From: Tubulanus polymorphus
Lineage: Eukaryota > Animalia > Nemertea
Assembly (NCBI RefSeq): GCF_964204645.1
Contig: NC_134027.1
Span: 24,142,560 to 24,206,559, forward strand
DNA length: 64,000 nt
Direction of reading: 5' to 3'
The notes under the pieces were generated by a model. The model was given only the letters and a program-made list of their open reading frames with translations. It did no database searches and had not been told where the DNA came from. This document shows, piece by piece, positions 1-62,152 of the stretch (positions are counted from its first letter, which is position 1; the number at the start of each line of letters is the position of its first letter). The position numbers were made by a program, and so were the translations under genes.

Positions 1-581
1 TTTTAGTTGTGTATATAGAAATAGCTTGAAATAAAAAGAGAAAATCCGATAAATAATCCATAAGGTAATAACGCATGAAATCAAAGTCAAGTAATCATTC
101 AATATTGGATTTGTCTAAAATAAATTAGGGCCGTCTGGACTTGAAAATATGATTATGTTAATGGTTAAAAAAAGAAATGCATTCAGAGGCCAGTTCCTGA
201 GCTACAGTTTGCAGATAAATTTGATGCCAATGCAGAGTTTTTATAAATGAGATTGTTGCAAAATCTTGAGTCGAATTTCATTAACAGCTCGGACCTGTTT
301 TCAGGATGTTAATTTTTGACTCGGTAAGATTTGAATTACTGTTACGACAATCGAAAGTGAACTGATACTGATTCTGATTCTCGAAATTCTATTCCTTAGT
401 TTTAGAACTCTGAATTTAGACTCTGTTGAATCAAATTTATCTCATAAAATTGCCGAACTACAATTAGATCTTGAATTCTTTCAAACATTTTGACTTCATC
501 CAACGGTTATTTTAAAACAGATTGATGGTTATTTTTCATAAATTATTCATGTCGTTTTCTCTTTTTTTCCGTGTTTTTCAG

Positions 582-590
582 ACCCGAAAG
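582..590 (+). CDS. FLN: Filamin 9-nt microexon (xPK), phase 1-1
   Basis: Long pyrimidine tract then tttttcAG|acccgaaag|GTaaat; in frame with the downstream chain. Confidence 0.62.
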
Positions 591-2631
591 GTAAATCGGC
601 AGTTTTTCTATTTTCACGATATCGCATGCGCTGAAACAAGTACAATGAAAAAAACATATATAAGATTAATTATTTGCAAATGTCGAAAAGAATATCATCC
701 ATTATACGAAAAATCCCGATCATAGCTCGAAAAACCTCCGCGACTTATTGAGAGCGTGGGCCTTAGATAAGATCCTACGTACGTAGCGATATTTGGCCTT
801 CGGTAGACCGGTCCCTAGCACTTAGTTGAGAGAGAGCATTACTGTTTTATTTTCATCGAAATGAAAAAATGTATTGTTTAGCACTTGTTCCGGCGCATTA
901 GCACCAGGGCAAACTGTTGTTTACTATACTTAATAATTATGTAACCAGTCTGTGACCTAATTGTCGTGACTTGCAACGGGAAAATATATGTAAATACGAG
1001 CAGATAAACAACATTTATAGATGAAATAAGCTGATAACGTCAAGGGTTGTTTCATATATACGTGTTTTTTGTGTATGTCTGGAGTTTAAAAAGTCAATCG
1101 CCTTCCATATATGGTGTCAGTATGCCGGTTATGTATAGACGCCTATGTATTAAATGTTTAAGAGAACAAAATATGGACTGGTTGACCCCCCATATATACA
1201 GGGTATGATATGGGTCCATCGTCTAAATACTGTTCTGTTTTTTTACAATTTTTTGAAATGTTTGAACGTCATTTATGAAAAATTTGTTAATTGTATCATT
1301 TTCGACCGAGAAATTTCTCCATTCACCTGCGGCAGATTTGCCCGGGAGTTTTTGTGGGAAAAATTAGGGAAAACTGAAGGGCATTTGTAAATGGGTGGAA
1401 AGTGGCCACCCTGTTGAATACCAAAATATTGATTATGACTGGTTTATTTTCATTACTGTGGAAGACTGGACTACATTTATGCGAATATAAGCCTCTGATA
1501 TCATGGAGGGCAGACAAACACTTGCTGTACTATGTTGACATATTGAAATCCTCTTTGAACCAGTGGCATAGTGGAGACTTTTAAGAGGCCATCATAGTTC
1601 AATCGCTAATCTAAGAACTTAAGTCTTTGGACTTGAGACCACTTTCAGACTTAAAGTCTCGACGGCCCAACTGGGCCCTAGTGGCTCTCAGGTGGATTAG
1701 ATACTGAAAGTGAGTTAATTACAACTCTTCGAGCCAAACTACACCGAGCACTGCAGACTGATAGCAATGACGATATTCATTTTGTAGTCATATTAAATCA
1801 TGGTTACAAAAAATTCATTATAGATATGGGAAATTGATGATAGGGACCACTTTTTCCCATGTATGATTTGTACATGCGTAAGGCGTGGCCCTTAATATTC
1901 TAGCTAATATTGCGTATGCCATATTGCATCTTCTACGATACCAGTGAACGTCATCAAATTATTCAAGTATACTTCACTGACGTCCTAGTTCGAGATTGAG
2001 AGCACTTTATATCTCTACTCCGTAAATATAGAAACGCCAATGTCTCTCTGCATCGCGCGTATTACTAAACAGACAACCACCCTCAGCTTGTCCCGTTGAG
2101 TTTCATGAGTCATTCACCTAGCTTCAAGCGAATATGTTTTCCAACGCAATCTATCTGAACTTGTGAGCAAATACCCAGAGTTCATCGTCAGTCAAATTGC
2201 TTAAAACCTCACAGAGAGATAGCTTTAACTCGTCATAAAAAAACTGATAAGGCTTAAACTAATGACCATTCAAAAATGTCAGCGGTTGTCGAAGAAAGGT
2301 CAATTGATTTTAGAAATTAATTAGGTCTATAAATCAACTGTCGACATTGACCGATAGATTTCACCTTTAGCCGCTATTGTACCAGTCAGCCCCAGCGCTC
2401 TATCTCATATCTATAGGTTCGATCGTGTTTTCTCTTTATTTGCTCATAAATTACTCCCATGGTTCGAAATAAGTCCAGAGGTTATTAATCGAGCATTCTC
2501 GGCTTGCACCGTGCGCAGCCAGAAAGTCGTAATTTTCGGAACAATTAACGACGTAATTGATTTAACGAGCTAGCGTATAACGAACTATTCATGATTCTAA
2601 TGAACTTTCACTTTTTTCTTTTAATCGTCAG

Positions 2632-2640
2632 TTCCTGGAG
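2632..2640 (+). CDS. FLN: Filamin 9-nt microexon (VPG), phase 1-1
   Basis: ctaat branch-like motif, T-tract, cgtcAG|ttcctggag|GTataa; GCATG motifs just downstream. Confidence 0.58.
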
Positions 2641-3139
2641 GTATAAAAAAACGAATTATTTTCGCATGCAGATGTATTGCATGCAGTTCATTGATGCATC
2701 AAAATTTTTTCTCGTTTATCTCAATATTCATGTGTGTGTGTGTGATGTTTCTGTTTAGTTTTTATCGACATTTGTTAACCGTAGATGGCAGCACCTGCTA
2801 GACATGAGAAACCTATAGACGTTCGCGTCGCCTGAAGTTCAGATTTCTAGCATGAAAGTGGACGGACCTTACGGCTTGCTTTCTGAACGCGATCGTCTTT
2901 GCATTTTAAGCTCGAGTTTGATTGTATCTTCATTTCATGAGAAATGCTTGATTGCCCTTGTCGAAAAGGAAATTTAAAGAAATATACTAGGTTGTTCCTA
3001 GTAAAAAATTTGAACGATTTCAATGGTAGATTTTGAGCCAACTGCTAGTAAAAAAATTCTAAAAATTTTTTTCCTAAGGAATTCTCATTTCATATATCAT
3101 ATATACATATTTATATATGTCGTGATTGATTGATAGAAT

Positions 3140-3142
<3 letters not shown>

Positions 3143-3211
<69 letters not shown>
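3143..3211. repeat. (TA)n microsatellite
   Basis: About 34 AT dinucleotides with one interruption. Confidence 0.95.
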
Positions 3212-3212
<1 letters not shown>

Positions 3213-4629
3213 TCATCATTCACCAGGAAAAACAAATGACACTCGTGAAATAAATTCGTCCAATATTGATAATGAGTAACAACACTCGAGATTTATCAGT
3301 GATATCTTAAGATTTATTAGTTTAGTTCGATTTTTGACTCAGAGAGCGCACACACAATGCGTCATCAGAACTAGACGACTGAATAGCTAGAATCTTGATT
3401 GTCTTCGAATAAGTATTTCCTAACGTTGTTTTGACTGCATTCTTGCGTAAAAAATTGTCAATGAGTGCAGCCATATTCTTTTTAAAAACAAAAGTATTTC
3501 CTGAAGTTAATTCGACTAGATAAGTGGGCAAAGAATATTATAGAAAATCTGTCATCGAGGCGATGAATGCGACATGATATTTTAGCATATCAGTATTCTA
3601 GATGTAAAGGCCAATGTGATTGGTTCCTTTCCAAGGAATTTCGATGTACCGACCAATCATAATTAAGAAGACATAAATGATGACTTAAATTTTTGAAATT
3701 TTTAAAGAACGATACCTTCATTAGAAAGCCCCGGATTTTCCTGTAGGATTTACTTTCTAGTACCAATCTAAGTTTTTTTTTATTAGACTGACTTCTCAGT
3801 GGTGCCACCTATTGATAACCCCGATTGATTGAAACGTCTCAAATTTTGCGAGACAACGTTTCATCGCATCGAAAACACCCACTTTAGGTTACTGGTGATC
3901 TGGGTAAAATAGGTTTTCATCAACAATCACAACCGTCACCTATAGTGGCTGAAAAATGGATATGAATTGACTGGAAAAAATAATAATGACCTTTTCTATC
4001 ATCTCTTATTCTAATGGCATGAAACGCTTGTGTACATGATTCATAGCTAAAATTGTTTTCGAGCTATTTACACATCTATCAGTTATTTCAGATATGCATG
4101 CGATACATATTATTTATATAGGAAATGATGATACATATTTTGAAGAGATGAATGCGTTAACCCTGTCTCGTGTTTTCGTCTAACGATGCTATTTCTTTTG
4201 AAATTTTCTCTTTCTCAGCATTTTGAAGAACCGTGTTTACGTCTTGTTTTAAAGTACGAGTAACCTTGCGTCGTGAAATAATATTTTTCTAAGGGTTGAA
4301 TAGATTTTGTGGCAAGGACCGCACGCGTGTATATGATTGTGATACGTGATAAATTGGGTTGAGAATTACGAGAATTTCTTATCGAAATTTTCGTTTCTAA
4401 GTCAGTAAACGATGTATTATGGTGTGGTTCCGTTTCGTAAGAACTGAACCTCGTCTTAAGATAACAATTACATTGAAGAAAATGTAGAATTTAGATGTAT
4501 ATCTATATCCCTCTATTTCTATTTTAAGCACATATAGTTTCTATCCCAGAGCTGCCAACTCTGATTCCTGGTATTCAGTATTTTTTTGCTATTTCATTCT
4601 AGTTTGGCGCGTACGGAAATGTCAAAGAA

Positions 4630-4850
4630 GTTGCTGAGGGTCTTACTGTTGATTACGGATTAATTTGAACAGAAATATGAAAGTTGTTATTAAGGGTTTT
4701 ACCCCTTGATTACTGAATAATTTGATCAGAAATGTGAAAGATGTTACTGAGGGTCTTACTACCTTGATTACTGATTTATTTGGACAGAAATGTGATGGAT
4801 GCGACTGAGGGTCGTACCTCCCCTGATCACTGATTAATTTAAACATTCCT
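4630..4850. repeat. Diverged ~60-bp tandem repeat, about 4 copies
   Basis: Recurring tgagggtcttact...ttgattactga...aattt...cagaaatgtga. Confidence 0.75.
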
Positions 4851-5184
4851 TTCATATTTCGATGAAGTGTACCTGATAATTTTCAACTTGTTACTGATGG
4901 CACTATTCAGGAGTTGGCAGCCCTGCTATACAGTCTAGAAGGCTCGAGTTTGTAGAAGATATGTTCGTTTAAGTGAAAATGAATTTCAAGAAGTTTTTGA
5001 TCTGGCCAAGGGCGATGGAGATCTTAGTTTTGAGAATTTGGGAATGAAAAAGATTTGGGTTTTTTAAAGCTATTCTCGCTTAAACAATGATTCTTTTCTG
5101 AAACTCGGGTCTTGCTTGAAAATTCAAAAGTCTAAAAGAATCTTATTTTTCTTTTTTTGTCTTCCACATTTGCACGTACGATAG

Positions 5185-5199
5185 GTTTTCAGATGCCTG
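5185..5199 (+). CDS. FLN: Filamin 15-nt microexon (GFQMP), phase 1-1
   Basis: T-tract 5141-5170 then gatAG|gttttcagatgcctg|GTgggt; in frame. Confidence 0.58.
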
Positions 5200-6014
5200 G
5201 TGGGTATTCCGTCCGTCCGATTATAGACCATAGATTGAAAACCCGCTTTTTTATTACGAATAGATTTTTATCGATTCCCGTAAAAACCCAACTCAGTCTT
5301 AGGGTCGTCGTGATAGATTAATCGATCGAAAATTGTAGCTTGGGTCCAGTTAACAAAAGAGAAATCCAGTGGCTAGGAGCCTGGTCTTTATGGACTGATC
5401 CTAACTTGAAGCCTATAGAGTTCATTCAACTAATGTATTAGACAATTAAGTTAATCACCGTGTTAACTGATCTGGTACCAGAGCCACAGTTTTGACTGAA
5501 ATGGTCTCGAAGACAAGTTTGTTAGATTGATTATAGTAGGCTTAGACCAGTCTTACAGGGACGGATCAGGAGGCCTATATTTGAAGGACTTGTCACATCC
5601 CATTAGGGCAGTTTGATGTCCGAAAAGGCAACATTTTATGTACTCCCGCAGGGGGGCCAGGTTTGAAGAACATTTCATATCCCAAAAGGACATTTCTATG
5701 TCCAAAAGGCAATATTAAGCATATTCCCGCACTGAAATGCACCAAGTATCTCTGTAGACAAAATAAAAAAGGTCACTCAAAAAATTTTGTTGGAACTGTG
5801 TAAGTCTCGCAAGTTCCTCACTGGTCTTCATCCGCGCAAGTGTCCTGACGATTTTGAATTGGCATAATTTTTCCAGAAATTTGCGGTAACTATCGTAAAG
5901 CCTGTGTATATGTTTTAATTATCAAATATCGCGAGTAATCAAGCTTTCCGTTATTAACTGGACCCAACGTTTACTCAAATAGATTAAGATTCGTTTTCTA
6001 CCCGTCTAGCAATC

Positions 6015-6131
6015 TGGGCCCGGGTTCCACGGTTGTGAGTAAAGAGTTAACTCACGAGTTAAAATCAGTTCATTTTCAACTTGATTAAACTCTGGAGTCA
6101 AATTTAACTCACAACCGCGGAACTGGATCCA
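6015..6131. mobile_element. Short palindromic MITE-like element (family A)
   Basis: gggcccgggttccacggttgtgagt...actcacaaccgcggaactggatcc; relatives near 187-300, 10895-10995, 57181-57290, 62395-62530. Confidence 0.75.
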
Positions 6132-6319
6132 CTGTGTATTCCTCTAGTACAATTAGATCGTGTTTTGTGGATTCCACCATTCTGTTTTCTTTTCCGTAGA
6201 TGTAACAAAAACTGATTCAATGTTTTTTCTATTTTCTCTTTCTTTCTCTCTATTTTTCCACTCATTCCCAAATATTCTTCGTGCTCCCCTCGCACACGTG
6301 CACAACTCCTACTCAACAG

Positions 6320-6328
6320 CGAGGAAAG
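6320..6328 (+). CDS. FLN: Filamin 9-nt microexon (ARK), phase 1-1
   Basis: ~115-nt AG-free pyrimidine-rich zone then caacAG|cgaggaaag|GTaaat; in frame. Confidence 0.62.
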
Positions 6329-6960
6329 GTAAATATTTCAAGTTTCCGGCACTTTTTAGTTCGTTATCTCATTTCCGAAAGTCTTAATTCAGTTTTCTTG
6401 AATCCGTTTTTCGTCGTTTCCGATTCACTTTTTCGTCCGAATTTTCGAATAGTTTGTGACTCGTTCTCTTCTAAACGCTGCAATTTTTTTCCTCTCGAAT
6501 CTTTCTTAACTTTTTCCGAAATTCAAAATGGATGTAAAAATAATTGATTAATCAAAAATTTTTATCGTTTGATTTTTCGAAAAGATTTCCGCTACGCAAA
6601 ATTCTACAATTTGAATTTTAATTAATTGAAGAAATATCGGGATCAAAATTGAAAAAAAATTTTTTCTTAAATTTACAAATCATGACCGCTTGAATATAAC
6701 TTGGATATCATTCCTCCCAGCAATTCTTTGTGATTACAGTTTATATGTCTGGAAGTTGGATTTCTTTATTGTAATTTTTTTCTAATTCGAATTAACAATT
6801 TTTTTTCACGAAAATAAAAAGACTTTGGTTAATTATGCAGTCATTTCAATAGGGTAGAAAATTATTGGAAAAAAAAGTTAAAAAAAAAAATTCATACAAA
6901 AATTTTAAGTGTATAAGGGTTTTTACTGATGGTTTTTCTTCGAAAAATTTTCGTTTCTAG

Positions 6961-7014
6961 TTCCGAATCTCGAACAGATGCCGATTAAGGCTGAAAGCGT
7001 CCCCGCCGCAGAAA
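6961..7014 (+). CDS. FLN: Filamin 54-nt exon (VPNLEQMPIKAESVPAAE), phase 1-1
   Basis: tttctAG|ttccg...gcagaaa|GTAAGT; open frame. Confidence 0.8.
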
Positions 7015-7406
7015 GTAAGTGACCACCGCAATAACGCGCTGAGCTCGGCACGACAGAATACCTCATCGAACTAATCAATGCGATCTAATCTATCCGTTGA
7101 TTTTATTAATTACTCGATTATTAATTAAGCATGCGTTAGAATTGATTACAGGTATTTTCTTTTTTTTTCGTTCGATAGGTCACGTAATTAATTTTCAGGC
7201 GCTGATGAAAGCATGTCGTTTCGCTCACTTAAATTAAAAAAGAAATTTTAGACAGCAAAAATATGATGAATGAGTTTAAACCCATGATTAGAAACATCAA
7301 ATTAGACGAGAAGATACACAATATCCGTGTATGATGATGACGAGAGAAATCCCACAATAACGAAGCCAAGATTGAAAAATTCTATATCAAAATGATTATA
7401 TTTGAG

Positions 7407-7450
7407 GAGCGATGTTTCGGCTAACAACGGTTAGCCATCATCAGGCGTAC
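7407..7450 (-). ncRNA. Minimal hammerhead ribozyme-like motif
   Basis: Reverse strand: cgc CTGATGA t ggctaac cgtt gttagcc GAAAC ATC gc; perfect 7-bp stem II. Confidence 0.6.
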
Positions 7451-7466
7451 TGAAGGCGTACTCAGA

Positions 7467-7508
7467 ACGCCTGATGATGTCTAACAGTTGTTAGCCGAAA
7501 CGTCGCTC
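7467..7508 (+). ncRNA. Minimal hammerhead ribozyme-like motif
   Basis: cgc CTGATGA t gtctaac agtt gttagcc GAAAC GTC gc; one mismatch in stem II, short stem I. Confidence 0.6.
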
Positions 7509-7627
7509 CTCAAATATAATCATTCCGATATAGAATTTTTCAATCTTGTCTTCGTTATCGTGGAATTTCTCTCAGAAACATCAGATGATTATTGAATCTG
7601 AATATCTGAATTTTCGGTTTTCAACTT

Positions 7628-7887
7628 AAGCTGTGATCACACTCAAGGAGCAATTTGGATTGGATCAGACCCAAGTCAAATTTGGCTGTTTACATGTAAA
7701 CCACTCACTCGATACTTAACAAAGTGAAGTGAGTCGCTTTCGAAACCATTTGCAATTTAAACGCCATCATTTGACCCATGGTAAAATTTGGCTCCGGCTT
7801 AGTCTTGCCAAATTTGGTTCACGCCTGTTTGGCCCATTTTACATTCACGTGAAAAATACAAAAAATACTCATATGTGATCGCAGCTT
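7628..7887. mobile_element. MITE (family F) with TIR aagctgtgatcaca/tgtgatcgcagctt
   Basis: Terminal inverted repeats; related internal sequence near 14740-14990, 21290-21560, 31420-31710, 61177-61340. Confidence 0.7.
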
Positions 7888-9003
7888 ATAACAATATTAA
7901 GGAAGTTGAATGAATTTTGACCTGGGAATAAAAAATTCAGTGTTTTCGAAAAAAATTTGGGGTTTTTCATTATTGTGGGTTTGATGCTCTAGTCTTTCGA
8001 CACATTGCAAAATTTCCACCTCTATACAATGAATTTAATAGTTCGTTCGTAGAATGCTAATAAACGCATGCAAGTCACTAAAAAAACAATGAAAATTGAA
8101 TCAACTAATGATATGTGACACCTAGATGTACATAACAATGGCTTATATTTAGTCAAACAAAACTCAAGAAATGTTAGAACCTACAGTTTTAAATTAACAC
8201 AGACTCATAATTTTGAGATGAACGAAATTAAGATTAACAACATTCGAACATTAACAGCCACTAAAAATTACGTTTCAACGAAAATAAATGACTACGTACT
8301 TATCACTCACTCGGAAAAATTACACGTGATAGTTGCATGAATGATAAAGATTAGATTCCTAATAGATGTACGTTAGGGTTGGTAAAGTGCGATGCTTAGT
8401 TTGCTGTAGATGTCGAATAGAAAACTTGTGAAATAAGTGCATTTTCAGACTTTTTCAGAATTACTCGGAATACAGAGCCGCCACCCAGAATATCGCTAAA
8501 AACATCATTTTCTCCATTTATTTTTCTATTATAATTGAAAAAAAATTAGTTTGCCTCATTTCTCCCATCATTTGAATTCAATTTAACACAATTTCCACCG
8601 TATTGAAAACATTTTTGGCAGTCCTTTCAAGATTTTATGTGGAAAATACTCCAATAAAAATTAAATTCCTATTTGAATTTTTCCCATCCATTTTAGAACG
8701 TGCTTAATAGAAAAATACATGTATTGTAAGGAAAGATTTTAAGAAAATTTTATTTTCCATTTTTTCCCTTCGCCCTACAATTTTTACCTAAAATATCTGT
8801 ATTCCAAGTAATAAGGACTTATTGTTGGTAACTGACTTAATCAGTAGTGCTATATGGGAGGGTTTAGGACAGCTACTGAAATAAGCTATCAGTAAACTGT
8901 TATTTGAATAAGAGACTTGTTGAGAACTGTTTTCTGAAATCTGGGGAATTTTCGTAGAAATCAACGTGCGAATATAAAATTGTGATTAACTTTTCATTTT
9001 TAG

Positions 9004-9042
9004 AGGCACCGAGGGCTGCTGCAGCTCCCCCGCCGGTCGATA
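9004..9042 (+). CDS. FLN: Filamin 39-nt exon (KAPRAAAAPPPVD), phase 1-1
   Basis: ttttcattttTAG|aggcacc...gtcgata|GTAAGT; joins 11057 as T-CNPSKC. Confidence 0.8.
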
Positions 9043-10275
9043 GTAAGTGTGGACGGTCACGCCCCCCACCCCCCCCTGAATACCCCCACCTAACACACAA
9101 CCGAAACAAAACATATTGACAGCATTCATCGCATGCAATTCGGATACACACCTGAAATAAATACTAGAAAAAACAGCTACAAAAACCGAACCGCAAAATT
9201 TGATCGCCGCTCTCTAAAAAACAAATCGCATGAAGTTTCTTTCGAAAATAGAGTATTTCGATGGGAAATTATGATTTCATTGTTGAAACTAATCGAATAA
9301 TTTTGATGTGATTAAAAGTAAGCATTGTAGAAAATTAGAACTCACAATCCAACCTCAAAAGTGAAAGTGCCTTCATTATCACATAAAAACGAATTAATGA
9401 CAATTTGTAATATTCTATGTACCAGTAATAAGTTGTATTTTCTGAAAAATATGGTAATATCTGACAAAAAATTTTTCTGTGGCCACAAACCCAGTTCTTG
9501 TTAAAATTTGTGTTGTAGTCAAATTTTTGAGAATTTAATTTTATTCATTCTTACTCGAAATTGTGGAACTGGGTCCAGTTTTGTAGATCGGATTCAAGTT
9601 CAAATTCTACTTTTATAAGTCCAATCAGATTTAAATTCGAAGCTGGACCGGGCCTGATTATAACTGGTTCGAAATGAACTTGCTATTTTCTATGCACGCT
9701 GAGAAAAGTATCTCGTTTCGACTATGAATAAATTCCAATATTTCTGTCTCTGATCAAAACCACTAAACAAAATCGACACCTCAAAACTGATAGCATTCAC
9801 TGTTGAATCGGCTTTGAAATATTTCTCGGCTTTCAGAATTTTCAGGATAACATTTTTACAGCCATCCGAGGGAATGACGCTTGTAGAACTTACTCAACAA
9901 AATATATATGATGGCTCTGTATAGCATGGATTAATATTTCTAGTTTCAGGAATTAATTTGTTTTTTAACCGTATCTGCAGTTATGGAGTTTAGTGCGTGT
10001 TGAAGTAGGCTTGGGAGAAATGGTTTGAGTATTGGTTGGACTGTGAGGAATGTTAGGGTTGTTGGTCATGTCCCCAGTTAAGGGTATTGGTTTGTGTAGA
10101 AATTTTTTAAGGTATATTGGTAAGGCTTGTGGGGAAGACGGGATATGCTCTCACTAGGCTCTGTGGTTGTGTTTAGGGATAACGAGTCAATTCAGGCCGA
10201 AGGTACTATTCTAAAAACTTTGCCTTTTGATATTCATTGATATATTCAGTATTCCTGAAGATGACTATTAGGATA

Positions 10276-10443
10276 CAGGGGTGGATCTAGAAAATTTGGG
10301 AGATATTTTTGAAGAAATATATCCTTAAAGATGGATATTCTGAGAATATGAATGTGAAATTTGCAGGTTAACTTATCTTGACGAAAAGGGCTATCTCAGT
10401 TGGAAGGCACGGGTCTGGACCCCCATCCCAAATCCGCCCCTTG
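10276..10443. mobile_element. MITE (family E) with TIR caggggtggat/atccgccccttg
   Basis: Inverted ends, gata on both sides; relatives near 5556-5780, 18130-18375, 26100-26165. Confidence 0.65.
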
Positions 10444-11056
10444 GATAAAGTAGTCTTGAAATCGATTCTTCATGCAAATTGACTCCTATAACTGCAGACA
10501 CTCAGTATGTTTTTAGTTAAAATGGCGCTTGTCAACTCAGATTGGTTTAGAAAAAAAGTTGTATCAATGCTTTAGTTTCTGTGTCACTGTTTTCGTGATG
10601 TCTGACAACTAACGCTTCATTTTGGTTGATTATAACCTGTGTCAAGATTGTTGCGACGAAATTTATCGCATCAACGTTTTCTATGTTGAACGTAGGATTT
10701 TGGTTGAAAAGTCGCGATGAAATTCCGCTCAAAGTTACGCATTTTAGTTTCCATGTTTTAACATGCTATATGTTTCAATGTACGTTGAAAGAAATTCTCA
10801 AATCCTAAAGAAGCTGTAATTCATCTTTAAAAAGTGTTTTATCAATTTATCGAGTTTTTATATGATGATCTATTTTAGCCACCGTTGAAAATCTTGGTCC
10901 AGTTTCAGTGTCATGAGTTAAGAGTTTACTCTTAAGTCAAAGATCATTTTCGATGAGTTAACTCTGGATCAAATCTAACTCAAAACTGTAGAACCACGAG
11001 GACCTAATTATTATTAGAATAACGACTGATTTCGAAATCTATTTTCCGCATTACAG

Positions 11057-11331
11057 CTTGCAACCCGAGTAAATGCTACGCGACCGGTCGTGGTATCCAG
11101 CCGAAAGGTATCCGCGTGCGCGACGTCGCCGACTTCAAGGTGCACACAGAGGGCGCCGGTAATGCCGAGGTCAAGGTCATCGTACTGGGACCGGGAGGCT
11201 CGCACGAGAAGGTGAAGGTGAAGAAGGTCGATGTCTGCACGTACGAATGCGAATACATCCCGCTGAAACCTGGAAAGTACGTCGTTACGGTGCAGTTCGG
11301 TGGACAGGATATTCCTAAATCACCATTCAAG
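11057..11331 (+). CDS. FLN: Filamin exon, Ig3-equivalent
   Basis: ttacAG|cttgc...aag|GTacag; CNPSKCYATGRGIQPKGIRVRDVADFKV...DIPKSPFK. Confidence 0.95.
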
Positions 11332-11880
11332 GTACAGTATCCTCAGAGGTTTGGGTTGGTTCTACAGGACTGGGTATTTAGGTGGGTTCACCATTCAAGG
11401 TACAGTATCCTTAAGAGGTTTGGGTTGGTTCTACAGGACTGGGTATTTAGGTGGGTTCACCATTCAAGGTACAGTATCCTCAGAGGTTTGGGTTGGTTCG
11501 ACAGGACTGGGTATTTAGGTGGGTTTACCATTCAAGGTACAGTATCCTTAAGAGGTTTGGGTTGGTTCTACAGGACTGGGTATTTAGGTGGGTTCACCAT
11601 TCAAGGTACAGTATCCTTAAGAGGTTTGGGTTGGTATTACAGGACTGGGTATTTAAGTGGGTTCACCATTCAAGGTACAGTATCCTCAGAGGTTCGGATT
11701 GGTTCTGCAGGACTGGGTATTTAAGTGGGTTCACCATTCAAGGTACAGTATCCTCAGAGGTTTGGGTTGGTTCTACAGGACTGGGTATTTAGGTGGGTTC
11801 TCCATTCAAGGTACAGCATCCTCAGGGGTTTGGGTTGGTTCTATATAGGACTTGGCATTTAGCTGGACTCACCATTCAAG
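11321..11880 (+). repeat. 68-69 bp tandem repeat (~8 copies) containing the exon end and splice donor
   Basis: caccattcaaggtacagtatcctcagaggtttgggttggttctacaggactgggtatttaggtgggtt repeated. Confidence 0.95.
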
Positions 11881-13111
11881 CTGCAGTAAGGTATGCAAGG
11901 CGCATTGGGGTTAGGGCTAGTTTTGTATATCAACTTCAGTTGCTGCTAATGTAAATATAGAAAATTGAAGTCAGTTCAGATTTTACAGTTATATGGATTG
12001 AAATAGAAAATATGTTATATTTTCCGGAATATGACCAGCTGTTATATTGGTGACATGTGTCGTCCATCCGGTTACGGGCGGTTCATCAAAGTATTCAATC
12101 CTTAGAAACCTACGGCATCTGGATTGAGAACATGTTTATACATAGATTGAACCTACATCAAGCTTTAAGTCAAAATGAAAACAGTCAAACCAGATTAAGC
12201 AGGTTTGACCGTAGTATTTGAGCCAAATAAGGGACTTTTTTCCTTGTTAGTGTATAAAGCCGTGATGGCCGGGTTCAAACGTGTATGTCTCCTCTATAAA
12301 GCCATTGAGGGGCAGCTCAACCACCCAGCTACTGCTGATTTCTAACTTCGAACACAAAGGTAATATGAAATAACTTCATACGTCTTATCGGCAGACTTAG
12401 AAACAACCCGCAGCGTCAGAAATCTAGTTATTATTGGACTCTAAATCATCTGAAATGATAACAATAAGCTTGAAAAACATCAGCTGAAACAATAGATATG
12501 AATCTCGTAAGAAAGCGGGTATTATCATATCGCTACCTGAGATCTTTTTTCGAGTCAGATTTATTCATGTTTTTTTAAACGTACATCGTTGATCTCGTTA
12601 CACGGACCTCACATGGCGCGTTACCTTTTTCCTACTCGCACCGATCCAGACAATACAAAGATATAAAAATACATATTTGCGAATTTGATACGCATCGTCT
12701 GTAACTTTATCTGAAAGCATTTGTTTGAAATGTTCGCACGTATTTTTTCCCATGGTTTCCACGCGTTGTTATACGACGATTGAAGTTATTTATGATTTCG
12801 ACGTGGGTTTCATTGACCGGTTTTAGCTTTGATTCATGGGGTACTAAAACACGATCCAGTTTCATAGTTCCCTTGGTTGAAATTTGACTAGCGATAAAAT
12901 ATTGAAAATGAACTAGACTCTGATTGACGCTTATCTCTTGGAGGTATGCGTATTTCATGGCATTAGGGACAGGGATGTGTCATTATCATGATGAATTGGA
13001 GTAAGCAGATTTTTAAAATATTGCCAGGCGGGGCACGCAATAATTCCAGGCAATCGACTCCTGCATAAATAAAGTACACACAGTATGGTGTTATTTGAGT
13101 TTCAACACGAA

Positions 13112-17216: not shown

Positions 17217-17828
17217 CTTACGAACTCGGCGTTGAAACTGACTTCGACGTCATCACAACGAACGCCGGCAAAAAACCGAAAGATGTCGTCGTCAACATCA
17301 CGAACCCGAAGGGCAAGGTAACAAAAGCCAAACTCGACGAACTAGACGACGGCTACATGGCGTCATTCAAGATGGCTGAAGTGGGTGTGCACACGATCGA
17401 GGTGGAAATCGGCGGCAAACCCGTGCCGGGAACGCCGCGTCGCATCGAATGCAAACCGAAAGGACAAGCCCCGCCCCCGACGCCGAAATCGGCGGCGCAG
17501 AAGGTGAAAGCGTACGGTGACGGTCTGAAGAAAGGCGTCACGAACAAACCGTGCGAGTTCACGATCGATACGCGCGAAGCGGGACCCGGCGCGCTCGGAC
17601 TGACCGTCGAGGGCCCGTGCGAGGCGAAGATCGACTGTAAGGACAACGGCGACGGAACGTGCGGCGTGAAATACCACCCGGTCGAACCCGGCGAGTACAC
17701 CGTCAATATCATGTACGCCGATGAGCACATACCGCGATCGCCGTTCAAGGCTCTGGTCGTGCCGCCCGGACGAGAGAACCTAGACGTCAGCGGGATACGC
17801 GTCACCGGACCAGGAGTCGAACCCGAGG
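17217..17828 (+). CDS. FLN: Filamin exon, Ig8-like and Ig9-like repeats plus start of the next
   Basis: cgatAG|cttac...gagg|GTatat; within ORF 17108-17974; KVKAYGDGLKKG...GLTVEGPCEAKIDC. Confidence 0.95.
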
Positions 17829-37171: not shown

Positions 37172-37210
37172 GCCGTACCGCAAGCAGAATATGACCGTTT
37201 GGCGCCGCTG
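37172..37210 (+). CDS. FLN: Filamin 39-nt hinge-1 exon (AVPQAEYDRLAPL), phase 0-0
   Basis: cttaac...tttcAG|gccgta...ctg|GTAAGT; in frame between 26512 and 37786. Confidence 0.8.
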
Positions 37211-40560: not shown

Positions 40561-40695
40561 TTTCGATTATTTCGTCAGTTTTCGAAATTTTTCGCTATTA
40601 TTTCGAAATTTCGAGACCTTTTCTCTTCGGACGAACTCGGGCTATTGAATCTTTAATCAACTTTTTCTCGAAAGATTGAAAGCTCGAGATCGACC

Positions 40696-43600
40696 ATGAG
40701 TTACTACGAGAGGTATGTTTCACGAGGTGATAGAGGTACGATGGGGAGTTCGTCGGTGTACAACGCATCGCACGGCGGTCGAGCGACGAATTTCGAAATT
40801 TCCCGCAACGATCGAAATTCCGATTTACGTCTGACGAACGGTATTAATGAAAGTTCGGAAAGGTCAACGCTTACCGATAGATATCAAACGGGAAAGAGTT
40901 ACCATTCGTCGTCCGGATTCGAGACCGGAATCGAGACCGGATCGGACATTACCGCCGGCTCGAGCCTCGGTGTCCAGTCGCTAGTGAAAACCGCGTCGAG
41001 AAGTTCGAGTCCCGTTCCGGCCGGCAGTCGCATCATAAAAATCAAAGAACGGACGACGACGTACAGCGTTCCGGACTCGAACTCCGGCGCGGAAAAAACC
41101 GAAGACGTCACCGAGATCGTCGACGTAAAGAGTAAACCGGCCGCATACGCGAATTCCGGTTCGTCGGGTTATCTAACGTCGAGGAGGATGTTGAGTCCGG
41201 AAAGAAGTCCGTCGTCGTATCTGGAGAGGTACGCGTCGTCGTCCTATAACGGCGAGAGTTCACCGTCGAGATACAACCACAGCTCCGGTTACGTACGCTC
41301 CAATTATGAAAGTAAGTCGTCTGCTGTGGCGAGTCCAGTAACCTCGACAACATCGACAGAAACAACCATGTCTAGAAGTTGGGAGACCGGGGTCAGTGGT
41401 GGCAGTGCTGCTGCTGGGCACTCGTATCTGGAAAGGTATTCCAGTCCGGCGAGGTCTTCAACCGAAGTGACCGTGACTGAAACAACGTCCGGTCTCGAGT
41501 CGGCCCGACCGACTGAAACCGCTTCAACTTCTAGCACTCGTACGGAAAGAACTGGTTCCTCATCTCTGAACGCGGCGGAGCGATCTTCGACGGTTGAAGT
41601 CATCGAAAGCAAGTCCGACTTTGAGTCGACTCGACCGCTTTCGAGTAATTCATCGGAGTCGCGGCGTTTGAGTCCCGAAATAAGCGGCAGTTCGTATCTG
41701 GAGCGATATTCGAGAAGTCACAGCCCGGAAAAGAAGTCGTCGACTGTCGTAGTTACGGAGAAGAAATCGACCTTGGAGTCGACTCAACCGAGGCAATCGA
41801 ATTATTTCGAGGGACGGACTTTGAGTAGTGATAGAAGTGGCGGTAGTTCTTATCTTGAAAGATATTCAAGTCCTGAAGAATCAACTTTCACAGTTACGGA
41901 GACAAAGTCAACCTTAGAGTCGACTCAACCACAGTCGAGTTATTCGGAGTCACGGATTTTGAATCCTGAAAAGTCGTCGACTGTAACCGTTACCGAAACC
42001 CGGTCCACCGGTGACGACGTGAAACCTCTTCGTTCGGAGTTCAGTTATTCAGCACCAGGTGGCGCTGCTCGCGCCGAAAAGTCGGAAATCTCATCGGTGA
42101 CAGAATCAACGAATCGTAGGATCGGTTATCTCGCATCGAGGGCGTTTAGTCCGACGAGAAGTTCGTATCTGGATCGATACTCGATTCACAGCCCGATTAC
42201 GAATTCTTCTTCGACCGTCGAAGTCGTGGAAACAAAACGAGACACGACGAATTTGAATCCGACTGAATCGGAAACGCGGTCGGTTACCGAATCGACGAAA
42301 CCGATTCAGGCGTATTCGTCTCGTAGTTTGAGTCCGAGAAGTTGGTATCAGCAGCGCTTTTCGAGAAACCCGATGGAATCGTCAACATTCGCCGAGAGTT
42401 CGTCCAATTTCAATTCATCTTTATTATCGGAGCAATCGACGGCGGAACAGCCGGAAAGATCATCGACTTTCACACTTACCGAGACAGAATCCACTGTAGA
42501 GTCGACTCCACAGCAGTCGAGTTATTTGGAGTCACGAACTTCGAGTCCTGAAAGAGGAGGCAGTTCTTATCTGGAGCGCTATTCAAGAAGTCAGAGTCCT
42601 GAAAAGTCGTCAACTCTAACAGTTATGGAAACAAAATCCACTGTAGAGTCGACTCCACAGCAGTCGAGTTATTTGGAGTCACGGACTTTGAGTCCTGAAA
42701 GAGGAAGCAGTTCTTATCTGGAGCGCTATTCAAGAAGTCGGAGTCCTGAAAAGTCGTCAACTCTAACAGTTACGGAAACAAATTCCACTGTAGAGTCGAC
42801 TCCACAGCAGTCGAGTTATTTGGAGTCACGGACTTTGAGTCCTGAAAGAGGAGGCAGTTCTTATCTGGAGCGCTATTCAAGAAGTCGGAGTCCTGAAAAG
42901 TCGTCGACTATAACAGTTACGGAAACAAAATCCACTGTAGAGTCGACTCCACAGCAGTCAAGTTATTTGGAGTCACGGACTCTGAGTCCTGAAAGAGGAG
43001 GCAGTTCTTATCTGGAGCGTTATTCAAGAAGTCAGACTCCTGAAAAGTCGTCAACTATAACAGTTACGGAAACTAAATCCACTGTAGAGTCGACTCCACA
43101 GCAGTCGAGTTACTTGGAGTCAGGGGCTTTGAGTCCTACTACTACAAGCGGCAGATCATATCTCGAAAGATTTTCAAGTCCCCAAAGGTCGTCGACTTTA
43201 ACCGTTACGGAGAAAACTTCGAATACGGAATTGGAAGAACCTGCTCGGGCTGGTTACCCGGAGGCACGTGGGCTTAGGGCGACTGGAAGTCCAGCTCTTT
43301 CAGATACAATCGTTACGGAAGCAACAATAGAATCAAAACCGCCGATTTCTTATGTGGATAGATATTACAGGCGAGCACCGGAACATCTCATAGTGGAAAA
43401 GAAAACCCTGACAGAGTCTCCAGTACACCTCGTTGCGGAGAAGGAAACAGTAACAGAGTCTCTGGAGCACCTGGTTGTGGAAAAGACGACCCCGGTAACA
43501 GAGTCTCCGGAGCACCTGGTCGTGGAGAAGACAACTGCGACTGAGTCTCCACAATACCTCATCGTAGAAGAGACAACCACAGTAACAGAGTCTCCTCGTA

Positions 43601-45586
43601 ACATCAGCCCATCGTTTACTAACACGACTGAATCGACCTTGACCTCGTACGACTTGACGGGATCTCGAAGCGGAGAACGAACTCCGGTTAAACCGGAGCC
43701 CTCGGTTTCGTCGTACTCGCAATCGTCCGACATCAGCTCCGACGCTCCGATCAACGAGATACAACGGATTCGCGAAACCGAAACGCGAACCATCACCGAA
43801 GAGCGTAAGGATTTCCTCACGCCCGATTACGTGCCGTCAAGCGGTAGGAAAATTTACACTGTTAACAGGAGCCCGAGTCCAGCAGTAGCCGATCGAGTCA
43901 CCGTGGAACAGAGGACACGAGCTGTTAGTCCGCAAGTTCTCAGAGTGCGCGGCCGCGAACAGAAAAAACAACGCAGTCCAAAACTCATTCGAGTACATCG
44001 CAGTCCAAGTCCTAATGTTGTTAGGGTACATCGCGGTCCGAGTCCAAATGTGGTCAGGATACACCGCAGTCCTAGCCCAGTTATAGTGCATCGTAGTCCT
44101 AGTCCTAATGTGGTTAAGGTTCATGGTGGTCAAAGTCCTAAAGTAGTTAGGGTGCATCGCAGTCCAAGTCCGGTTATAGTGCATCGTAGTCCTAGTCCTA
44201 ATGTGGTTAGGGTTCATCGTGGTCCAAGTCCTAAAGTAGTTAGGGTGCATCGCAGTCCAAGTCCGGTTAAAGTGCATCGTAGTCCTAGTCCTAATGTGGT
44301 TAGGGTAAATCGCAGTCCAAGTCCAAAAGTAGTCAGGGTACATCCCAAGCCAAGTCCAATCAGGGTGCATCGCAGTCCAAGTCCGATCAAGGTTCATCGC
44401 AGTCCGAGTCCAAATGTGGTTCGGTTACATCGTAGTCCGAGTCCAAGAGCGGAAAGAAAAGTCATTCAAGTCCAACAGCATTCCGAACCTCTTCACGTGG
44501 CATCGGAAAATATTTTACAAGCGCAGCGAAGTCCGAAAATAGTACACGTACAAAAGCAGGACGTGAGCCCGGCGAGAACGCGAAAACACAAACATAAAAA
44601 ACATCGTAAAGAAAAGAAAATATTCGCGGTTCATCGATCGAGGTGGAATGAACCCGCGGTTCTAGCGGACGACGGATCGACGGTCGAAGAGAAAATAGTA
44701 CAAATACGATATAAAGACGAACCGGACGTCGTGAAGTCAGAGGTGAGGAGAGTGCGACGCGTAGAACCGGCGGTTTTTACAACGGTCGCCGAGCCGGTTG
44801 TACATCAGCTGAACGGTGAACCCGGGGTCGTGTTTAGCGGCGCACCGGGACGAGTTCATTTACAGAGAAGCGTAACGCCGGTGAATTCAGGTCACAGAGT
44901 CATCCGTATTCATCGCACGCCCGAAGCAACGCTGTCGACTCGAAGAGGAATCGACGTGCAGTCCGCGCCATCTCCGAATTTTTCGGAATTTCAGCATCGC
45001 TTTGTTACGACGCAACGGCGGATCGAGCCGCAGCAGGTCGTGCAGGTCGAACGAAGCGTCAGCTCGCAACAACCGCAGCAGGTCGTGCAGGTCGAACGAA
45101 GCGTCAGCTCGCAACATCCGCAGCAGGTCGTGCAGGTTGAACGTAGCGTCGGCTCGCAACAACAACAACCTGTCGTGCGGGTCGAACGAAGCGTCAGCTC
45201 GCAACAACAACAACCGGTCGTGCGGGTCGAACGAAGCGTCAGCTCGCAACAACAACAACCGGTCGGCATCATGAAACAAGATGCAGTAATTCCGAAAACA
45301 GAACACGCGAAACTGGAAACGAGCACGAAGGAGTCTCACCACCACCGCGTTATGACTACGTCTACCGCCGCCGTATCGCCGTCTCCGTCCAACAGAGGGC
45401 GCAGTCCGTTCCGTTGGAAGAAAAAGAAGAAAAACAAGACGAAAAACGACCACAAACGACGCAGAGAGTTCATCGAAGAATACGCGTTCACTAATAGTAC
45501 GAGCGCCGATAACGGCGTGAAAAAATATTCAGCGATGAATAGCTACGTGCCTAAAGCTACTGCTGGGTTAGATAGCCCGCTTAAAG
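40696..45586 (+). CDS. FLN: Giant alternative first coding exon of filamin (1630 codons, low-complexity, repetitive)
   Basis: 4.9-kb uninterrupted ORF from accATGa; aaag|GTatat donor 20 nt before the ORF end, phase 1, matching the acceptor at 46119; in-frame stop upstream at 40654. Confidence 0.78.
42454..43210 (+). repeat. Coding 147-bp (49-aa) tandem repeat, about 5 copies
   Basis: tccactgtagagtcgactccacag at 42490, 42637, 42784, 42931, 43078. Confidence 0.95.
43972..44445 (+). repeat. Coding VHRSPSP(N/K)VVR repeats
   Basis: More than 15 short units in the ORF translation. Confidence 0.92.
45028..45265 (+). repeat. Coding QQVVQVERSVSSQQ repeats, about 5 copies
   Basis: gtcgtgcaggtcgaacgaagcgtcagctcgcaacaa repeated. 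Confidence 0.92.
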
Positions 45587-45679
45587 GTATATTCTATATA
45601 CATTAATGATACAGGCTCCGGCTATAAGCTATTTTTAACTGCTAGTTGAACCCCAGCGCGGAGTTGGACGGTTGACCGA

Positions 45680-46118: not shown

Positions 46119-46247
46119 GTAGCCCGTTCAAGTTCCACGTGGATGCCGTTGATAGTGGATATGTAACCGCGTACGGTCCTGGTTTGAGTCATGGTATGGC
46201 TGGAGAGCCTGCCACCTTCAGTATCAACACTAAACATGCTGGACAAG
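46119..46247 (+). CDS. FLN: Filamin exon, Ig16 end / Ig17 start
   Basis: ttacAG|gtagcc...caag|GTatgt; GSPFKFHVDAVDSGYVTAYGPGLSHG. Confidence 0.95.
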
Positions 46248-48399: not shown

Positions 48400-48417
48400 C
48401 CGATCTGGGATTTGCAG
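48400..48417 (+). CDS. FLN: Candidate 18-nt microexon (ADLGFA) in Ig17
   Basis: T-rich tract then ttgtAG|ccgatctgggatttgcag|GTattg; phase 1-1, open. Confidence 0.45.
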
Positions 48418-62134: not shown

Positions 62135-62152
62135 CAGATGAAGGAGAGACCG
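62135..62152 (+). CDS. FLN: 15/18-nt NAGNAG microexon ((A)DEGET) in Ig22
   Basis: tttatttcAG|cAG|atgaaggagagaccg|GTAAGA; phase 1-1 from either acceptor. Confidence 0.6.

Follow-up and report, generated by a model that had tools for sequence, protein, structure and literature searches.

In the cited passages of PMC7216277, filamins are given two hinges only, hinge 1 and hinge 2, of which hinge 1, between immunoglobulin-like (Ig) repeats 15 and 16 (Ig15/16), is encoded by a single exon, is spliced out in muscle and is sensitive to calpain. A further insert is known from mouse Flnc, where exon 8a, 63 nucleotides (nt) long and unannotated, is included at about 10% in wild-type muscle and at less than 1% in a model of myotonic dystrophy, and has been confirmed by a peptide, according to the passages of PMC10770608 that describe it. 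Those passages neither place exon 8a between Ig2 and Ig3 nor term it a hinge; because its inclusion and exclusion peptides, as given there, both run into the start of Ig3, we place it at the Ig2/Ig3 junction. Here we describe a filamin gene of the nemertean Tubulanus polymorphus, as found in a stretch of 64,000 nt (contig NC_134027.1, forward-strand positions 24,142,560 to 24,206,559; hereafter the window, with positions counted from its first letter). We propose that four predicted microexons and two annotated exons in the intron before Ig3 are spliced optionally into the full-length protein, forming a spacer between Ig2 and Ig3 of 0 to about 45 residues, a reading to which we give a probability of roughly 0.65.

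With exon 8a the proposed linker would share an optional, in-frame insert at Ig2/Ig3 that annotation has missed, and the exon 8a insert, as published, is likewise proline-rich; unlike the array here, exon 8a is a single exon. With hinge 1, as those passages describe it, the linker would share splice control of an insert between Ig repeats, flexible in hinge 1 and predicted to be flexible here, but it differs from hinge 1 in lying near the actin-binding end and in being made of several very small exons. It stands at Ig2/Ig3, which is neither Ig15/16 nor Ig23/24, the sites of hinges 1 and 2. By analogy, the linker might behave as a splice-controlled filamin hinge distinct from both. An earlier note on this DNA had placed the vertebrate rod hinges at Ig15/16 and Ig23/24 and not before Ig3, which does not hold as worded: mouse Flnc exon 8a and several vertebrate FLNC isoforms place an insert there. 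In FLNC, Ig3–5 is described as compact and Ig2–3 as not a compact pair (cited passages of PMC4170960). Mammalian Flna has a poison exon N, a regulated alternative exon that leads to decay, to which the cited passage assigns no position (PMC8652244). Unlike that exon as described, the linker exons here are in-frame and would not trigger decay. We take poison exon N to lie in FLNA intron 9, presumably the Ig2/Ig3 junction.

All six segments proposed by the earlier note lie where it had put them, on the plus strand, each preceded by AG and followed by GT, with lengths of 9, 9, 15, 9, 54 and 39 nt. The predicted short segments have the size, the AG/GT ends and the frame preservation of microexons, and all six are phase-1. 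Their splice sites were scored with a model trained on the same gene (25 acceptors, 23 donors). The first predicted microexon, 582..590 (three residues), has strong sites (acceptor 8.5, donor 6.1) and a GCATG at 624; the second, 2632..2640 (three residues), has an acceptor of 3.6, a weak donor and GCATG at 2664 and 2679; the third, 5185..5199 (five residues), scores 0.2 and 3.8 and has no GCATG within 150 nt. The fourth, 6320..6328 (three residues), joins a donor of 6.1 to an acceptor of -3.7, and could alternatively be the 3' end of an alternative first exon. The two larger exons are 6961..7014 (18 residues; GCATG at 7129), which holds the start Met of the public models P0469 and P0470 at 6978, and 9004..9042 (13 residues, Ala/Pro-rich; GCATG at 9131), a cassette present in P0469 and absent from P0470. 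At least one allelic difference is listed within the 54-nt exon, at 6983, in a third codon position, and it is silent (codon read by eye).

Joined by their coordinates, the six segments give an open frame into the constitutive exon at 11057..11331, whose acceptor is phase-1 and which encodes filamin Ig3, as the earlier note had read it. The best structural match of this exon in the PDB is the start (first domain) of FLNA entry 4m9p. Thirteen exons of the window make an unbroken chain of 980 residues, whose alignment to human FLNC begins at residue 472, past two Ig repeats, and the public models agree on the exon. The gene is a filamin by its public protein P0471, with two CH domains and 22 scored filamin stretches, and in a tree of 18 filamins it joins Lineus longissimus and contig L001 with support 99/99. 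The earlier claim that no combination of exons creates a stop at a junction is right for an upstream exon with A, C or G as its last letter (0 of 64), and the public models of the gene imply C; it fails for T (1 of 64). The Ig2 exon itself lies outside the window; the intron was read from the window start, and more small exons may lie upstream.

The motif KVPxxxQMP is spelled twice and only across junctions, once by 582, 2632 and 5185 and once by 6320 and 6961, with 582 and 6320 each supplying the K. The two copies agree at six of nine positions, and 5185..5199 and the 54-nt exon have in common an 8-base word as well as QMP. Random AG..GT segments matched such a repeat in 8 of 100,000 draws, and segments from a pool with donor-like ends in 49 of 100,000, in keeping with the earlier view that chance is a poor explanation. 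The six codons preceding the Met of the 54-nt exon form part of the repeat, a point in favour of their being translated. Proteins of the Rbfox family bind (U)GCAUG, and binding downstream of an exon promotes its inclusion. GCATG occurs within 120 nt downstream of four of the six exons compared with two of 23 constitutive donors (P 0.003 against the position background).

A scan of positions 1-11056 found ten candidate exons of at most 15 nt, six of them symmetric and stop-free. Shuffled sequences (n = 40) held 1.1 ± 1.1 symmetric, stop-free candidates and never reached six (0/40), whereas at the same threshold, which was chosen once the score of 6320 had been seen, the minus strand held two and 22 kb of other introns four. 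A stricter threshold left three candidates versus 0.5 in shuffles (0/40), yet two on the minus strand, so that chance alone would supply one or two candidates of this kind. Two of the six, 5652-5660 and 10177-10185, are absent from the earlier note. The former (plus strand, 9 nt) has an acceptor of 2.9, a donor of 3.2, a short AG-free zone and no GCATG, and is possibly there by chance; its inclusion would leave the KVPxxxQMP repeat uninterrupted. We rejected 7179 (5 nt), 2417 and 10177 as candidates, since they break the frame or have weak donors. Among the six exons of the array the sites are not uniformly strong, with low acceptors at 5185, 6961 and 9004. Ahead of 6320 lies a long pyrimidine tract within an AG-free zone of 118 nt (6200..6319 on the plus strand; 76% pyrimidine over 100 nt), compared with 11–88 nt for the 25 constitutive acceptors; a zone of such length, seen at 6320 only, is likely to reflect a distant branch point, or else may be the body of a first exon. 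Taken one by one, the exons at 6961 and 9004 are almost certainly real, 582 is very probably so, 5185 probably so, and 2632 and 6320 are each a shade less secure than 5185.

The Ig2/Ig3 junction also receives inserts in other animals. Among 497 proteins, 267 could be scored, the other 230 being left out for a missing anchor or for holding other repeats; an insert, mostly rich in Pro, Ala and Lys, occurs in 40 of the 267, which is not a frequency, since isoforms are counted singly. One subset of 120 proteins gave 16 with an insert, six of its rows being judged by eye (five without an insert, one doubtful model excluded). Isoform inserts measure 0, 12, 17, 29 and 33 residues in Mizuhopecten, 0, 19, 32 and 37 in Argopecten, 0 and 2 in Pomacea, 0 and 80 in amphioxus, and 0, 5 and 88 in Schistocephalus, where the three records are otherwise identical; Lingula has 0 and 3, in records from different scaffolds. 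The listed pulmonate snails have no insert at this junction. Some isoforms of vertebrate FLNC (lizards, snakes, frog, lungfish, bony fish including salmon, cattle and warthog) have inserts of 21–44 residues, with a proline-rich sequence recognisable from fish to mammals. The Ig2/Ig3 intron is in phase 1 in all five loci with a readable Ig2 donor, out of eight examined. The Tubulanus linker is 67% Pro, Ala, Lys, Gln, Gly and Glu, with 22% Pro, within the range of the 23 distinct inserts of relatives listed, compared with 23% and 3% in intron translation. Of the linker that the earlier note had suggested looking for in related filamins, the junction position and the make-up are shared and the sequence is not. 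When the linkers of three relatives were compared with 16 introns by tblastn, nothing convincing was matched. Junction position and exon architecture are kept in relatives, whereas the sequences are not kept between phyla.

Closer to the present gene, L001, an intronless contig that groups with Lineus, has a linker of 16 residues, whereas none of the seven Lineus longissimus models that hold Ig3 has one, which indicates that annotation can miss such a linker. The predicted fold of L001 Ig2–Ig5 has a predicted local distance difference test score (pLDDT) of 51 at the linker block versus 85-97 for most domain blocks. Over 7 bases, and in frame, the predicted microexon 2632..2640 weakly matches the beginning of the L001 linker. 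Among 57 metagenome loci gathered, some annelid-like, the annelid-like ones have a phase-1 intron at the junction, in which lies a conserved array: six symmetric exons, 27, 30, 30, 45, 15-18 and 33 nt long. At least one of these exons turned up in 10 of the 14 loci searched; one module is invariant across seven loci. The full-length filamins P0482 and P0447, which are possibly from different species, contain five and three modules of the array, respectively. The inserts of scallops, annelid-like worms and tapeworm thus have the junction, the low-complexity make-up and the modular lengths of the linker here, and the annelid-like loci also have a genomic array of symmetric exons; their exons of 15–45 nt differ from the three predicted 9-nt units of Tubulanus and have no sequence in common with them. 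Locus L005, with an annelid-type linker and an apparent one-base assembly error, serves as a pointer only, and the GCATG behind four of six L007 exons (within 150 nt) was discounted because that 9-kb intron holds 24 such sites.

Several records show other variation in or near this region. In the same intron, L050 has a linker of another build, with a short first exon resembling the first annelid-type module at ~5380-5410 and a larger exon of Pro/Lys/Ala repeats at 8555-8690. Oyster isoforms (P0029, P0179-P0191) differ by modules of 11 and 12 residues within Ig2, not at the Ig2/Ig3 junction. P0001 has 13 Ig3-like repeats after a Pro/Lys-rich N-terminus and no CH domain, and L023 has an Ig3-like tandem stretch (1-1840) upstream of its Ig3 match; the two possibly reflect a large tandem-Ig cassette at the Ig2/Ig3 junction. 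The Ptychodera isoform P0035 carries some 1100 low-complexity acidic residues ahead of an Ig3-like repeat.

A number of observations weigh against optional inclusion of the array in full-length filamin. Five public proteins derive from the gene (P0427, P0429, P0471, P0469 and P0470). All three full-length models among them (P0427, P0429 and P0471) join Ig2 directly to Ig3, and in both models that have the larger exons the N-terminus is missing, the protein beginning at the Met inside the 54-nt exon. The 9-15 nt exons occur in none of the five; the earlier note had foreseen that gene predictors would miss the exons, which is right for these and wrong for the 54- and 39-nt exons, both annotated. 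No GT-AG joint appeared in any of four sequencing runs aligned over 6900-11320, a span that excludes all four 9-15 nt segments. Over that span runs X1-X3 cover the introns as DNA would and X4 aligned nothing, so the runs carry no information on expression. The splicing of the four 9-15 nt segments is a prediction from genomic sequence. The acceptor at 6320 is the weakest of all, -3.7 compared with a constitutive range of -0.6 to 14.2, and the donor of 2632 is weak in the same model. The choice among some 64 subsets of short candidates lifts the stricter figure for the repeat to about 0.03 or less, and GCATG follows only two of the four microexons taken alone (P 0.08). No insert is present in 227 of the 267 scored proteins, including all listed oysters, mussels and clams and both Owenia models; no relative has the same linker sequence; and the differences of 2-5 residues in relatives are known from proteins alone and could be explained by shifted splice sites. 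The linker has one PxxP only and no canonical SH3 motif.

Some of these points could be explained if a promoter within the intron gave rise to a filamin without the actin-binding domain, starting at the Met of the 54-nt exon. The 39-nt exon would then be a cassette in an N-terminal tail, the donor at 6328 might end a non-coding first exon, and the upstream short segments would be separate or there by chance. P0469 and P0470 have exactly such a form, a Pfam search found no CH domain in P0469, and no public model links Ig2 to 6961 or 9004; at 6320, moreover, a weak acceptor is paired with a strong donor. There are precedents in Drosophila FLN90, which has no actin-binding domain and consists of C-terminal repeats only (cited passages of PMC5173320), and in Ptychodera P0035, whose entry point is an Ig3-like repeat and which contains no CH domain. 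Forms of the P0469/P0470 type, unlike FLN90 as described there, would retain Ig3 onward. However, 6961 is preceded by an acceptor AG with a T-rich tract, the codons ahead of the Met belong to the KVPxxxQMP motif that the upstream microexons also spell, and the insert is internal in scallops, annelid-like records, tapeworm, L001 and mouse. P0469 and P0470 either reflect a true internal start or were cut short since reads cannot align across 9-nt exons; we favour the latter, because the codons before the Met form half of the KVPxxxQMP repeat. An internal promoter as the explanation of the array is unlikely to our minds, though it and an optional linker could both hold.

It would also be conceivable that the 54- and 39-nt exons make up a two-exon optional linker and that the 9-15 nt segments, all or in part, are AG..GT pairs due to chance or decayed exons out of use. 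This would fit the one or two candidates expected by chance in 11 kb, the existence of two unlisted candidates, the weak sites at 2632 and 6320, and the absence of the short exons from the models. It fits poorly with the junction-spanning repeat and the excess of candidates over shuffles, with the GCATG behind 582 and 2632 and the AG-free zone at 6320, and with steps of 2-5 residues at the Ig2/Ig3 junction in four other lineages, and we consider it more doubtful still than an internal promoter. Least probable by far, we think, is that the exons are used as one fixed block, or that the insert serves for binding or cleavage and not as a mechanical spacer. The proline-rich sequence kept in vertebrate FLNC from fish to mammals and the annelid-like module invariant across seven loci would suit a binding motif, but 9004 is skipped independently, scallops and annelid-like records have modular series, and no sequence is kept between phyla. 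A docking or cleavage role for the linker is possible and less supported. Optional splicing of all six exons is the reading we prefer, and the splice-variable linker that the earlier note had advanced gains from the optional modular inserts of relatives and from the 39-nt cassette, while the use of the 54- and 39-nt exons in full-length filamin is what we infer.

Under optional splicing of the array, the microexons would be included in some tissues, with an Rbfox-type factor exerting part of the control through the downstream GCATG, and part of the array may have arisen by tandem duplication of one KVPxxxQMP unit. The product would be a disordered, flexible, Pro/Ala/Lys-rich spacer that loosens and lengthens the link between the actin-binding domain with Ig1–2 and the compact Ig3–5 module, which might, in muscle or nerve, alter how far actin cross-links reach and how compliant they are.

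The rest of the gene shows further alternative parts. Other cassettes in the public models lie at 37172-37210 (39 nt), 48400-48417 (18 nt) and 62135-62152 (18 nt), and a 612-nt exon (17217-17828) is skipped in P0429; exons of 18 nt are thus annotated in the gene and those of 9-15 nt are not. Within a filamin intron, 40657-45606 on the plus strand holds an open frame of 1649 residues, rich in Ser, Thr and Arg and with several tandem repeats, and a donor after 45586 joins it in frame to the exon at 46119. The frame has no Pfam match, no match among the 497 collected proteins and no place in the five public models; it probably serves a short C-terminal filamin as a giant alternative first exon, unless it is a giant cassette. 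A 68-nt tandem repeat of 8.3 copies (11320-11888) begins within the last part of the Ig3 exon and copies the donor site of that exon, making a row of decoy donors. High-copy repeats lie at ~7300-7560, 10156-10303 and 10896-11043; the one at ~7300-7560 is palindromic, reaches a summed depth of up to ~42,000 in X1, and is likely a small transposon-derived element.

It is tempting to speculate that Ig2/Ig3 is a third, unrecognised splice-controlled hinge inherited from the bilaterian ancestor, retained as one minor exon in vertebrate FLNC and elaborated separately in nemerteans, scallops and annelids into arrays of tiny exons, with the six exons here, three of them of 9 nt, acting as a length dial for the distance between the actin-binding head and Ig3–5. 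We hold this wider idea tentatively, at somewhat less than even odds. The literature search, with few subscription papers within reach, turned up no description of either an Ig2/Ig3 hinge or invertebrate arrays, and the main text of a planarian splicing paper does not name filamin (PMC4978528). The site has one published and proven example; its spread across animals and its construction from microexons appear to be undescribed in the literature searched.

In summary, filamins have an optional insert site beyond the two reviewed hinges, in chordates, molluscs, annelid-like worms, flatworms, a brachiopod and nemerteans. Mouse Flnc exon 8a, which is reported to be lost in a myotonic dystrophy model, thereby gains an evolutionary and structural setting and can be tested as a spacer, and the Tubulanus gene illustrates how runs of 9-nt exons may evade annotation and leave truncated models.

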